Source of the DNA: a virus
IMG/VR virus record: IMGVR_UViG_3300045988_041431
Reading direction: 5' to 3' (one strand)
Length of the DNA: 5,533 nt
The first letter of the stretch is position 1; each line of letters opens with the position of its first letter. Shown here in pieces: positions 1 to 5,533 of this stretch. Under the pieces are notes generated by a model that was not told the origin of the DNA, ran no database searches, and was given only the letters and a program-made list of their open reading frames with translations. The translations under genes and the position numbers were made by a program.

Positions 1-77
1 TACTGTTGCGCCTGTTTTGCGCTTGAGGTTGCTAGCTCGCTCGCTGCCTGTTCCCAGCTTTTCGCACTCTTAAGTTG
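1..77. repeat. Terminal direct repeat, copy 1 (circularisation overlap of a 5,456-nt circular genome)
   Basis: Positions 1..77 (tactgttgcgcctgttttgcgcttgaggttgc...cgcactcttaagttg) are identical to 5457..5533. The copies are direct and sit at the two extreme ends. The VP2 reading frame continues without interruption across the implied junction. Confidence 0.97.
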
Positions 78-3094: not shown

Positions 3095-3211
3095 TTACTC
3101 TTTGTCTTTGTTTGCGTCCTTTAGTGCGTGGTAGATTTCATCGAGCTTATCAAGAATGCTCATCATCAGTGCAATCGCTTCCTTAACGTCCTTGATCTTG
3201 ATCAATGCCAT
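3095..3211 (-). CDS. Unannotated 38-aa ORF (MALIKIKDVKEAIALMMSILDKLDEIYHALKDANKDKE), hypothetical helical peptide
   Basis: ATG at 3211..3209 is preceded by GAAAGGAGGTAACTTA (SD AAGGAGG, 7-nt spacing). The TAA stop at 3097..3095 is embedded in the SD of the next gene, which indicates translational coupling. I translated it by hand. It falls below the length cut-off of the ORF track. Confidence 0.5.
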   Translation of the reverse strand: MALIKIKDVKEAIALMMSILDKLDEIYHALKDANKDKE

Positions 3212-3950: not shown

Positions 3951-4940
3951 TCAAACTTTTGGTTCACGCCACTTTTGCTTTAGCTTGTCCTTTTCTTTCT
4001 GAATGTTTAGATAGGTTTCATAATCCACGCTGGTGCTCTGTTCGAGATTGATCAAACTTTGTATTGCACTGCGTCTGCGTCTTGCTCTAACCTCTCTCAG
4101 CTCGTCAGAGTGTGCCTTAAAATAGCTTTCAGTCTCTTGGCTGGTATCCTTATCAAGTATTTTGTCAAAATAGCGTGGTGGCCTTTTCTCGTGCCCTCCT
4201 GCGCATATGATGCTATCTGTTTTCAAGATTTCATCTTTGTGTTCGTTCAGATACTTTTCGCCGATGCCTTTCGACATGATTCGGAACTCTGGCTCTCTGC
4301 CTTCCATCCAGTATTTTGCCGCTTGCTCTGCCCCTATGGCTTTTTTGTTGACGTATTGTGCCACGTATGCAAAGCTCCCCGGCTGTGCTGGTGAAAAGTC
4401 TATCATGCCTTTGCCCCAGATTTTTTGTAGCCACTCGCTTTTGAAATAGCTGTTGCCTTTTTGGTTTTTATACCATTGCGCATCCGGTGGTTTCAGTCCA
4501 AATACTATTGCGTGATAGTGTGGTCTTTTTGTTCTGTCACCATATTCAGCTGCTAGAAAGTATTTTATTGGCTTTTTGTATGCTTTTCGTAGCCGCTTTA
4601 TAAATAGCTGCACGTCTCGTTTGCTTACTGTCTGGCTTTGAATGCTTCTGTAGCCTTTGAGGATCTCGCCGTATGGGATATGTTCATCGTCATATGTTAG
4701 TGTTAGGAAAATTACATCGTCCCATTCTTTGGCTTCTAGTTCTATTCTGGTTGCCCATTGGTCAGCCATCTGTTTGCGGCAGTACTCGCACTTACCACAT
4801 GGTAATAATGCGAATTTTCCTTTTTTGATTCCGTCCATGATGTCCGTTTGCAGTCCTTGCTTGGATAGGTTTTCCAGACTTCCCCACAGCTGTGGTTTTT
4901 TCGTGTCCATCTGAAATACTAATGGTTTTGTACATGGCAT
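3951..4940 (-). CDS. VP4: Rolling-circle replication initiator VP4 (HUH endonuclease, phiX174 protein A family), 329 aa from ATG 4940 (334 aa if GTG 4955 is used)
   Basis: The track ORF contains the Cys cluster LPCGKCEYCRK, motif 1 VIFLTLTYDD, the HUH motif 2 RPHYHAIVFG, and the double-Tyr motif 3 FAYVAQYVNKK. I prefer the ATG at 4940..4938 because it gives the N-terminus MPCTKPL, matching the M.C..P start typical of Microviridae VP4. The GTG at 4955 lies inside a hairpin stem only 3 nt after the SD. The stop is TGA at 3953..3951. Confidence 0.93.
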   Translation of the reverse strand: MPCTKPLVFQMDTKKPQLWGSLENLSKQGLQTDIMDGIKKGKFALLPCGKCEYCRKQMADQWATRIELEAKEWDDVIFLTLTYDDEHIPYGEILKGYRSIQSQTVSKRDVQLFIKRLRKAYKKPIKYFLAAEYGDRTKRPHYHAIVFGLKPPDAQWYKNQKGNSYFKSEWLQKIWGKGMIDFSPAQPGSFAYVAQYVNKKAIGAEQAAKYWMEGREPEFRIMSKGIGEKYLNEHKDEILKTDSIICAGGHEKRPPRYFDKILDKDTSQETESYFKAHSDELREVRARRRRSAIQSLINLEQSTSVDYETYLNIQKEKDKLKQKWREPKV

Positions 4941-4947
4941 TTTTGTT

Positions 4948-4982
4948 ACCGGCACAAGCCTCCTTGTCTATCTTGTGCCGGT
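4948..4982. promoter_or_regulatory. Perfect 11-bp stem / 13-nt loop hairpin covering the Rep translation-initiation region
   Basis: The arm accggcacaag (4948..4958) pairs with cttgtgccggt (4972..4982). The loop cctccttgtctat (4959..4971) carries the complement of AAGGAGG. On the mRNA the SD therefore sits at the 3' side of the loop, the GTG at 4955 is inside the stem, and the ATG at 4940 lies 7 nt past the stem base. The structure is read directly from the sequence; its function is unknown. Confidence 0.5.
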
Positions 4983-5035
4983 TGACACCTCGCTTCCTTT
5001 TAATATTAACTTGTTGTAGTCGTAGTAGTAGTAGC

Positions 5036-5215
5036 GTGGAAACTGTTGAAAACTCGTTTTTTTAACGTTACTGCGTTTATTTATTGCCTTTTTGCCTGTT
5101 GAAAACTTTGTTGAAAACTTGTTGAATTGTTGAAAGTTCGTCATTATGACGAAAACCTTTGTGCAACTTTATGTTGAAAACCTGTGGAAAGTGTTGAAAA
5201 CTCAAGTTTTCCACA
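5036..5215. repeat. Iteron-like array in the VP2-Rep intergenic region (core TGTTGAAAAC)
   Basis: Perfect TGTTGAAAAC copies lie at 5044..5053, 5097..5106, 5109..5118, 5172..5181 and 5192..5201, all in the same orientation. Degenerate copies lie at 5121..5128 (GTTGAATT) and 5129..5137 (GTTGAAAGT). In the central cluster the GTTGAAAAC cores start at 5098, 5110, 5121 and 5129. An 18-nt composite GTGGAAA[C/G]TGTTGAAAAC occurs twice (5036..5053 and 5184..5201). An inverted partial copy GTTTTCCACA lies at 5206..5215. Confidence 0.8.
5137..5153. repeat. 17-nt perfect palindrome TTCGTCATTATGACGAA embedded in the iteron array
   Basis: The arm ttcgtcat (5137..5144) and the arm atgacgaa (5146..5153) are reverse complements around a central t. 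In ssDNA this can form a 7-bp stem with a 3-nt loop. Its 5' end abuts the last degenerate iteron. Confidence 0.7.
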
Positions 5216-5242
5216 TTCTCTATTTTTTGGATTATTGTTACT

Positions 5243-5270
5243 AAAAAAGGGGGATGTTTTGCCATCCCCC
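5243..5270 (-). terminator. Rho-independent terminator downstream of VP2
   Basis: The minus strand reads TAA GAAAAGGA [GGGGGATG GCAAAA CATCCCCC] TTTTTT AG. The stem is 8 bp (5249..5256 pairing with 5263..5270), the loop is 6 nt, and a T6 tract follows at 5248..5243. The structure begins 8 nt after the VP2 stop. Confidence 0.8.
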
Positions 5271-5278
5271 TCCTTTTC

Positions 5279-5533
5279 TTAGTTTCCTTTGTATGCGTTG
5301 AATGTGTCCATGTTTGGCATGATTGGCACTCTTTGGTTGTACTTTTTGAAGTTTCCTGCTGTGTCTTTGGCTGCTTTGCCAGCCTTTTTTGCTGCGTCTT
5401 TGGCTGCTTTACCAGCTCCTGCAAGGCCTGCACCTAACTTGCTAGCTGCATAGGTGTACTGTTGCGCCTGTTTTGCGCTTGAGGTTGCTAGCTCGCTCGC
5501 TGCCTGTTCCCAGCTTTTCGCACTCTTAAGTTG
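5279..5533 (-). CDS. VP2: DNA pilot protein VP2, C-terminal part (the same gene as 1..680; 5457..5533 duplicates 1..77)
   Basis: I checked this frame codon by codon from 5455 down to the TAA stop at 5281..5279. The translation is ...QQYTYAASKLGAGLAGAGKAAKDAAKKAGKAAKDTAGNFKKYNQRVPIMPNMDTFNAYKGN*. The unique coding part is 5279..5456. Confidence 0.85.
   Translation of the reverse strand, partial: QLKSAKSWEQAASELATSSAKQAQQYTYAASKLGAGLAGAGKAAKDAAKKAGKAAKDTAGNFKKYNQRVPIMPNMDTFNAYKGN
5457..5533. repeat. Terminal direct repeat, copy 2 (duplicate of 1..77)
   Basis: This segment is an exact 77-nt match to 1..77. Confidence 0.97.

Follow-up and report, generated by a model that had tools for sequence, protein, structure and literature searches.

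A candidate DnaA-box and DnaA-trio module in gut gokushoviruses resembling the unwinding half of a clostridial chromosome origin

A phage cassette compared with the basal unwinding system

Firmicutes chromosome origins have a basal unwinding system, the BUS, where DnaA-trios adjoin a co-oriented pair of DnaA boxes and are followed by an AT-rich unwinding element, and where a DnaA-ATP filament that loads from the boxes in the 3'->5' direction engages six trios (PMC8287927, PMC6669920, PMC10721633, PMC7561715). A trio is defined as 3'-[G/A]A[T/A]-5' (PMC8287927, PMC7561715), the DnaA box beside the trios is allowed two or fewer mismatches to the species-specific consensus (PMC8287927), and the paired sites are referred to explicitly as 'co-orientated DnaA-boxes' (PMC10721633). 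We compared these systems with an array of short repeats in the genome of a gut gokushovirus, IMG/VR record IMGVR_UViG_3300045988_041431 (the whole stretch analyzed, 5,533 nucleotides, is hereafter the window), which an earlier note had placed at positions 5036-5215, next to the gene for the rolling-circle initiator VP4/Rep. We consider it rather likely that this array is the DnaA-box part of a ~215-bp module that mimics the unwinding half of the host origin (dnaA-dnaN) of Oscillospiraceae-type Clostridia, and the module was probably derived or captured from a host chromosome origin.

The cassette (~215 bp, 4998-5215) comprised an AT-rich tract, ACTTGTTG, the run TAG TCG TAG TAG TAG TAG, two adjacent boxes and two more box arrays. 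Its elements are listed below by position and strand; identities are those between two groups of carrier phages, A (which includes the window) and B (with distant Rep proteins), described in the next section.

4998..5009, no strand: AT-only tract TTTTAATATTAA, a candidate DNA-unwinding element (DUE) beyond the trios, assigned from its sequence and from a position kept in all cassettes and in bacterial dnaA-dnaN regions
5009..5016, + strand: ACTTGTTG, which separates the AT tract from the trios and is invariant and specific to the phages (100% identical, groups A vs B)
5017..5034, + strand: TAG TCG TAG TAG TAG TAG, a DnaA-trio-like run, 3'-GAT-5' when read from the box side (A vs B identity 0.97)
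5035..5043, + strand: proximal degenerate DnaA box CGTGGAAAC, assigned from its sequence
5044..5053, + strand: second box of the co-oriented proximal pair, TGTTGAAAAC, a host-type DnaA box with the reverse complement TTTTCAACA
5054..5096, no strand: spacer 1, variable between phages (groups 0.37 identical), with a small palindrome, AACG-N6-CGTT, at 5064-5077
5097..5137, + strand: middle array of four head-to-tail boxes at 5097, 5109, 5120 and 5128, the same tandem arrangement as in bacterial origins
5137..5153, no strand: palindrome TTCGTCAT-T-ATGACGAA in spacer 2, consisting of two inverted TGACGAA half-sites and present in a subset of cassettes only
5172..5201, + strand: right array of TGTTGAAAAC (5172), TGTGGAAAG (5183) and TGTTGAAAAC (5192)
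5206..5215, - strand: inverted box, reading GTTTTCCACA on the + strand and containing TTTTCCACA, a perfect TTWTNCACA match; it can pair with 5192-5202 as a hairpin

In the alignment of cassettes, the unit read as an AT-only tract, ACTTGTTG, TAG-xCG-TAG-TAG-TAG, ~4 nt and two abutting boxes (either TGTGGAAAA GTTGAAAA or xGTKGAAAx TGTTGAAAA), followed by ~45 nt, four tandem boxes, ~35 nt and another three or four boxes. The reverse complement of TTTTCCACA, a perfect TTWTNCACA match, is TGTGGAAAA, from which TGTTGAAAA is one base off; several distant-Rep relatives carried TGTGGAAAA at the proximal-box position, a perfect TTWTNCACA box on the opposite strand.

At the level of sequence, the cassette agreed with every feature of the BUS that could be checked. 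The box at 5044 (TGTTGAAAA) had no mismatches to the host-type box and the one at 5035 (CGTGGAAAC) had two, and these boxes (5035-5043 and 5044-5052) abutted in the same orientation. The run at 5017-5034 contained at least three trios in a 3-nt register. In a BUS the trios begin 0-16 nt from the first box, with ~4 nt between the proximal box and the trios; the spacer was 4 nt in the distant-Rep phages and in all bacterial origins inspected, and in the window's group the fourth TAG plus one base aligned with this 4-nt spacer. The TAG strand read 5'-AT tract, TAG run, boxes-3', as it did in the bacterial loci L144, L150, L157, L187 and L215, and this polarity agrees with 3'->5' filament loading and with the strand relation of the C. 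difficile trios (CAC CTA CTA CTA TTA CTA CTA). The combined pattern of trios and box pair was present at one place in the phage genome and in none of 3,000 simulated genomes, and is thus not a product of chance. An oriC, however, is chromosomal and typically flanks dnaA, whereas the cassette sits between VP2 and Rep of a 5,456-nt microvirus; its location therefore makes it a mimic or derivative rather than an oriC.

The closest described counterparts are B. subtilis incC (DnaA-boxes 6 and 7 plus the DnaA-trios) and C. difficile oriC2, with which the cassette shares the co-oriented pair, the short spacer, the three or more in-register 3'-GAT-5' trios and the AT-rich tract; as in Firmicutes BUS regions, further boxes lie upstream. 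The cassette differs from these regions in its place, a single-stranded-DNA phage of 5.5 kb instead of the dnaA-dnaN interval, in facing either way with respect to the neighboring genes, and in having a variant box (TTTTCAACA), a very short AT tract and the extra invariant ACTTGTTG.

Enrichment of the repeat was evaluated against 200 dinucleotide shuffles of the window: there were 18 matches to TGTTGAAAAC with two or fewer mismatches, compared with 6.3 +/- 2.3 in the shuffled sequences, and none of the 200 shuffles reached 18. The five perfect 10-mers of the earlier note were all recovered (+ strand starts 5044, 5097, 5109, 5172 and 5192). Its two degenerate copies proved an undercount, since we found five in direct orientation (5035, CGTGGAAAC; 5120, TGTTGAAT; 5128, TGTTGAAAGT; 5147, TGACGAAAAC; 5183, TGTGGAAAG) and one inverted copy at 5206-5215 that reads TGTGGAAAAC on the - strand. 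The four tandem units are present with first intervals of 12 and 11 nt as described, but their starts had been given 1 nt too high (5097, 5109, 5120 and 5128, with spacings of 12, 11 and 8 nt, rather than 5098, 5110, 5121 and 5129). The 18-nt composites at 5036 and 5184 were correctly placed, and both alternative hairpins at the right end (within 5183-5215) can form. What the note had missed was the larger conserved unit, which starts ~40 nt to the left of the array with the AT-rich tract and the TAG run (4998-5034).

Bacterial counterpart and distribution among phages

A scan of bacterial and archaeal genomes (one genome per species, three copies of TGTTGAAA required) yielded at least 120 loci. 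Among those listed, 10 had a DnaA signature motif within ~1 kb of the array and a further 4 had a DnaA-type Walker A motif nearby; 12 of these 14 DnaA-associated loci came from metagenome-assembled genomes (MAGs) of Oscillospiraceae, Ruminococcus/Ruminococcaceae, Eubacteriales or Clostridia, one from a Bacilli MAG, and one was untitled. No microvirus genes, either from a prophage or from a binned phage contig, were found in the 120 bacterial loci listed. Pfam matches placed dnaN, the array and dnaA in that order in L144 and identified DnaA or DnaN flanks in L150, L157 and L187. The layout of the bacterial dnaA-dnaN regions, the interval that houses the BUS in Firmicutes, began with an AT-rich tract and (TAG)3-5, continued after a spacer of 4 nt with an adjacent, co-oriented pair of boxes (TGTTGAAAA/TGTGGAAAA) and, ~50 nt further on, with tandem boxes, as in the example ...tatatatgtt TAGTAGTAGTAGTAG gggg TGTTGAAAC TGTTGAAAAC (about 50 nt) TGTTGAAAG at TGTTGAAAAGTTGAAAAC..., and was the same as that of the phage cassette in order, spacing and polarity. 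A hidden Markov model (HMM) built from 20 phage cassettes aligned near end-to-end with L144 (E = 3e-18), L187 (7e-17), L215 (6e-14) and L150 (8e-13). The box logos of phages (n = 155) and bacteria (n = 65) were equal, TGT(T>>G)GAAAA(C)(T), with TGTGGAAAA and TGTTGAAAA alternating at the same alignment columns. A stretch of 8 kb in L144 contained 21 boxes, 19 of them inside the 325-nt dnaA-dnaN region, and L157 and L165 had a second box cluster upstream of dnaA, like bipartite Firmicutes origins. ACTTGTTG was absent from the bacterial origins inspected.

The DnaA proteins adjoining the arrays carried GGRDHSTIVY, or variants ending in -STVVY or -STVMY; at L126, L144, L150, L157, L165, L170, L172, L187, L215 and L226, RDHST(I/V)(V/M)Y replaced the usual RDHTTV(L/I)H. 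This signature corresponds to T435S and H439Y, changes at two of the six base-specific DnaA residues that are conserved in Firmicutes and E. coli (PMC7561715), and the origins of RDHST-type DnaA were nearly devoid of TGTGGATAA. The variant box fits these substitutions at two base-contacting residues, which suggests a DnaA lineage with altered box specificity. TAG-trio runs followed by TGTTGAAAA arrays were also observed in a Mesoaciditoga MAG (L195, 2400-2775), in Anaerolineae (L139, L211) and in Chloroflexota (L188), with no dnaA within the stretches fetched for these Thermotogota and Chloroflexota loci; the TGTTGAAAA box variant may thus be distributed more widely than the Oscillospiraceae. 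Dense TGTTGAAA arrays (9-17 copies) were likewise seen in an Enterococcus MAG (L134), a Spiroplasma endosymbiont (L236) and Pseudoalteromonas (L180), with no DnaA motif in the stretch fetched.

Phage carriers were identified by a motif scan of IMG/VR and a sensitive blastn search of GenBank phages, and the counts and taxonomic ranges obtained are lower bounds. They comprised at least 43 GenBank records and at least about 25 further IMG/VR microvirus contigs, all of them gokushoviruses from mammalian gut samples. The GenBank carriers annotate the cassette neither as an origin nor as a repeat, and 37 of the 40 records listed have no feature there at all. Every listed microvirus with ATAACTTGTTGTAG in the IMG/VR scan carried the full cassette, no microvirus among these matches having the motif alone; the other matches were mostly chance occurrences in large contigs. 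Three invariant TAGs were present in nearly all cassettes and the proximal box pair in all full ones. When the cassette HMM was run against the non-microvirus viral contigs examined, it gave short partial matches only. The canonical-box version of the pattern, TAGTAGTAG-N1-8-TGTGGATAA, had at least 42 matches in IMG/VR, of which one was in a microvirus, adjoined coding sequence and appeared chance-like; there is thus no sign yet of other microviruses mimicking canonical-box origins.

The carriers fell into two groups. Group A (Rep >=80% identical) has the cassette in the interval from VP2 to Rep, its box strand running antisense to the genes, and the close GenBank relatives KX513876, MT121961, KT264784 and KX513864 all kept the array between these two genes. 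In group B, the cassette is downstream of Rep with the box strand usually sense. The earlier note had proposed co-variation of the repeat with Rep as a check on its own idea; this check failed, because with Rep only 34-42% and VP1 39-50% identical, group B had the same boxes at the same positions. A direct example is KT264791, which in a megablast comparison with the window had the non-coding stretch alone in common (90% over 103 nt), its Rep and VP1 being 37% and 40% identical. Between groups A and B, column identity was 100% for ACTTGTTG, 97% for the trios, 80% for the boxes, 50% for the AT tract and 37% for the spacers, and the flanks outside the unit were unrelated between lineages. These differences argue for selection on short elements rather than on the whole stretch; in the AT tract, which is AT-rich in all cassettes despite its low identity, it is composition rather than sequence that is conserved. 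A natural deletion in MG945162 (L401, about 355-400) has lost the proximal box pair and spacer 1, and its trios (TAG GAG TAG TAC TAG) are 7 nt from the middle box array. The gradient of identity from trios to boxes to spacers, together with this variant in which trios are kept beside boxes, points to selection on the DnaA elements.

The cassette also occurred in both orientations on nearly the same backbone. In L301, which has a group-B backbone with flanks collinear with those of L005, L315, L349 and L360 at 85-95% identity, a cassette of exactly 212 nt is inverted between the flanks (76% identity), indicating that the module can be swapped or inverted at its edges and works either way round. 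Alternating purine-pyrimidine repeats of high G+C content flanked the group-B cassettes, GCGCGCACGCGCG... at one end and CGCGCACAGCGC at the other (L005, 3690-3737 and 3951-3963; L301, flanks of 2072-2283); these quasi-palindromes coincide with the L301 inversion breakpoints and could mediate inversion or form Z-DNA. At four-fold degenerate sites, base skew taken with respect to the coding strand was the same for both cassette orientations, which is suggestive if this skew is read as a proxy for the packaged strand, a pattern that codon selection could equally produce. The coding strand showed an extreme excess of A over T at these sites (A 0.36-0.54, T 0.10-0.16) in the whole window genome as well as in L001-L005, L008, L014, L029 and others.

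Proposed function and alternative explanations

Based on this architecture, its conservation and its bacterial counterpart, we regard a DnaA-bound origin mimic as very likely, and the chances that the cassette starts or primes phage DNA synthesis as about even. The earlier note was right in kind to see an origin-type array of protein-binding repeats, and one of its options, a binding platform for a host factor, is favored by the match to a bacterial DnaA-box variant accompanied by DnaA-trios; its leading analogy, with Rep iterons, did not hold. In the mechanism that we infer, host DnaA would bind the TGTTGAAAA/TGTGGAAAA boxes on the double-stranded replicative form, DnaA-ATP would oligomerize from the proximal pair (5035-5053) onto the TAG trios (5017-5034), the trios and the AT-rich tract (4998-5016) would melt, and the resulting bubble would give the host proteins for helicase loading and priming access to phage DNA. 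The orientation independence of the cassette, the equal four-fold-site skew and the lack of a significant fold point to the double-stranded replicative form, and not the injected strand, as its place of action. The opening could be used for theta-type amplification or maintenance of the replicative form, for complementary-strand priming during rolling circle replication, or for exposing DNA to Rep. Starting or priming DNA synthesis is our preferred reading over titration or sensing of DnaA and over help to Rep, because the unwinding elements are the best conserved. The host would belong to the Oscillospiraceae/Ruminococcaceae-type Clostridia, which agrees with an earlier finding that gut gokushoviruses have M15 peptidases most similar to those of Faecalibacterium and linked with Clostridiales (PMC3394797). 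A more speculative extension, which we consider rather unlikely, is that the replicative form behaves as a DnaA-driven minichromosome, with theta replication from the origin mimic coupled to the host initiation cycle and Rep kept for the production of progeny single strands.

Several points weigh against this interpretation. The proposed identity of TGTTGAAAA as a DnaA box draws on its position, the surrounding architecture and the altered DnaA signature, and the AT-only tract is only about 12 nt long. The region downstream of dnaA does not, by itself, normally support autonomous replication in B. subtilis, and no cassette was found in PLSDB plasmids, so that there is no independent example of the element driving an extrachromosomal replicon. 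A microvirus already has a rolling-circle initiator, which leaves a second, DnaA-driven opening without an evident need. The invariance of ACTTGTTG in phages, set against its absence from bacterial origins, implies that something phage-specific also acts at the cassette. Finally, the bacterial taxonomic picture is a lower bound drawn from the 120 or more loci listed.

The same DnaA-box evidence would apply equally if the module bound host DnaA without starting phage replication, either as a sink, in which many replicative-form copies with ~11 boxes each titrate DnaA-ATP from the chromosome origin and stop host initiation, or as a sensor, in which DnaA occupancy tunes phage transcription to the host replication state. 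Dense boxes away from the chromosome origin that could sequester DnaA are a feature shared with E. coli datA, which titrates DnaA, with B. subtilis DnaA-box clusters and with the 'inc' fragments, so named because B. subtilis origin DnaA-box regions on multicopy plasmids are incompatible with the chromosome; a TTGACA-17-TATAAT-type promoter ~60-130 nt past the last box in distant-Rep phages would suit the sensor. Titration, however, requires boxes alone, and titrating loci have neither trios nor an unwinding element, yet the best conserved features of the cassette are the trios, the 4 nt between them and the box pair, and the AT tract alongside, and the deletion variant retains trios beside boxes, which argues for selection on unwinding and not on binding alone; we therefore consider a sink or sensor unlikely. 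Melting by DnaA might instead expose a single-stranded nick site for Rep in or beside the AT tract, at ACTTGTTG or at the neighboring hairpin, so that the two together form a composite origin. HUH initiators require single-stranded substrates, ACTTGTTG is phage-specific and 100% conserved, and, in the window's group and in most distant-Rep phages, the cassette is turned with its AT-rich end toward the Rep gene, with the hairpin adjoining; on the reverse complement, CAACAAGTTAATATTAA agrees at 12-13 of 18-19 positions with the core of the phiX174 origin, CAACTTGATATTAATAAC, a faint and AT-rich likeness. Inversion between collinear genomes would nevertheless switch the displaced and packaged strand, yet the four-fold-site skew is the same both ways, and in L301 the hairpin falls on the box side, which leaves help to Rep quite improbable.

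Repeats pointing in the same direction, at roughly helical spacing and beside the Rep gene were the basis for reading the array as iterons, that is, as binding or autoregulation sites of VP4/Rep. Iteron plasmid origins (P1 oriR, pSC101, R6K, RK2) do share with the cassette direct-repeat arrays, an AT-rich region and a role for host DnaA at an extrachromosomal replicon, but their iterons bind and co-vary with their own initiator, with DnaA boxes as accessories, whereas all repeats of the cassette are host-type DnaA boxes and its initiator is an HUH rolling-circle protein, not an iteron-binding (winged-helix Rep) one. Geminiviruses and circular Rep-encoding single-stranded (CRESS) DNA viruses likewise have direct repeats near Rep on a small circular single-stranded-DNA genome, but these flank a nonanucleotide stem-loop and co-vary with the Rep N-terminus; no such stem-loop exists within the array, the sole internal hairpin (5187-5220) being made of boxes and not conserved. 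With boxes unchanged at 34-42% Rep identity, an array that in distant-Rep phages lies downstream of Rep and upstream of other genes, and the same repeats filling bacterial dnaA-dnaN regions devoid of microvirus genes, the iteron reading is largely refuted and has very little probability left. Only marginally credible, too, is a complementary-strand origin on the injected strand, whether a hairpin box like the 'A site' of the ABC primosome or a single-strand origin recognized by RNA polymerase, an option of the earlier note that is now disfavored. The hairpin at 5187-5220 could pair TTTTCCACA with TGTTGAAAA, and the right-end hairpin of the window (5192-5215) puts a DnaA box in a stem as in an A site, but the rest of the module has no A-site counterpart and the hairpin is missing from many cassettes: the inverted box, found in most close relatives of the window (Rep >=80% identical), is absent from two of nine (L003 and L084) and occurs in only 3 of 10 distant-Rep cassettes (absent from 7). 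A single-strand origin would have a stable fold on a fixed strand, whereas folding of either strand was no better than that of shuffles (z = -1.5 and -1.1) and the cassette flips relative to the coding strand, even between collinear genomes. phiX174 and G4 belong to the family of the window phage and also depend on host proteins to start DNA synthesis. In their origins, which include the 30-nt gene A nick site, the PriA n' site and the G4 primase site, the signals are individual sites or folded single-strand structures of fixed strand, in contrast to the double-stranded, orientation-independent array of DnaA boxes and trios. Sites for another host regulator such as Spo0A (box TGNCGAA), or captured host DNA without function, are likewise hardly to be expected. 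In the B. subtilis origin, DnaA boxes overlap with Spo0A boxes, which phi29 uses as well, TGTTGAA is one base from TGTCGAA, and two inverted TGACGAA copies lie at 5137-5153; position 4, a C in the Spo0A box, is, however, T or G in essentially all copies, and the co-occurring trios and the site beside dnaA point to DnaA, while element-specific conservation across at least 43 genomes speaks against functionless DNA. The cassette was also considered as a target of homologous recombination for integration at oriC, which was rejected, as similarity to bacterial origins is limited to short boxes and the spacers have diverged.

Full-text searches of a literature library returned no paper linking Microviridae with DnaA boxes or oriC, and nothing relevant on DnaA-trios in bacteriophage or on the motif. 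The cassette would accordingly be an origin module of the DnaA-box/DnaA-trio type that single-stranded-DNA phages carry and that moves among them, of a kind not described before in this phage family. For gokushovirus replication in Gram-positive hosts, essentially unknown so far, a complete host-type unwinding module offers a concrete, testable hypothesis. It also allows a host (Oscillospiraceae/Ruminococcaceae-type Clostridia) to be assigned without culture to these gut phages, an abundant group that is uncultured. The combination of the DnaA-box variant TTTTCAACA with two base-contacting DnaA substitutions constitutes a natural experiment in initiator-origin co-evolution, and the 212-nt module swapped and inverted between phage lineages indicates that non-coding replication elements can move as cassettes in Microviridae. 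If the replicative form were indeed a DnaA-driven minichromosome, a microvirus would gain a plasmid-like, non-integrative carrier state, which could help to explain the long-term persistence of gokushoviruses in the gut.

Genome setting and additional features

The two ends of the window (1-77 and 5457-5533) are identical, and this 77-nt terminal redundancy shows that the contig is circular and the genome 5,456 nt long. All genes (VP4/Rep, M15 peptidase, ORF5, scaffold-like protein, VP1 and VP2) are on the - strand, and VP2 spans the circular junction. The earlier note had placed the array in the only large non-coding region, and this was borne out: 4956-5278, between the VP2 stop and the VP4/Rep start (both -), is the largest and sole large non-coding stretch. 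The features on either side of the cassette were as follows.

3951..4955, - strand: VP4/Rep gene, rolling-circle initiator (Pfam REP_ORF2-G2P, E = 1e-20)
4948..4982, no strand: perfect 11-bp hairpin, the cassette boundary on the AT-rich side
5243..5276, - strand: G+C-rich hairpin followed by a T run, terminator-like, after VP2; the cassette boundary on the box side
5279..5533, - strand: 3' part of VP2 (annotated as VP2 in KX513876), the rest of the gene lying across the circular junction in 1-680

The loop of the 4948-4982 hairpin on the coding strand, ATAGACAAGGAGG, holds the AAGGAGG ribosome-binding site of Rep, just upstream of the start. Group-B phages had a hairpin just 3' of the Rep stop, with co-varying 10-15-bp stems and a conserved loop, ATCAAG(T/A)A (L005, 3606-3636; also L014, L034, L054, L103 and L401), or GACAAGG in L403. 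Possible roles of these Rep-adjoining hairpins of the window and of group B are those of a terminator, of an element controlling translation, or of a rolling-circle origin belonging to the phage itself.

A scan of 4700-5533 gave no sigma-70-type promoter, the only match being the terminator-like hairpin after VP2, and an Rfam scan of 4850-5350 at E <= 1 gave nothing beyond sub-threshold chance matches. A TTGACA-16 nt-TATTAA pair at 4982-5009 (+) lies on the non-coding strand, directed into the cassette and antisense to all genes; it was confined to the closest relatives and its second hexamer failed the rule of the promoter scan. The half-sites of the spacer-2 palindrome (5137-5153) fit the Spo0A-box consensus TGNCGAA; this palindrome was common to the window's close relatives and a few distant-Rep cassettes (e.g., L005), and unrelated sequence took its place elsewhere. 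An exact-protein look-up of ORF5 returned only metagenome contigs of about 5.5 kb and gave no host clue. Downstream of the M15 peptidase gene, at 3095-3211 (-) of the window, is an open reading frame of 38 aa without a Pfam match, which is 68% identical in KT264791 and is present in two or three tandem copies in some relatives (L405-L407).

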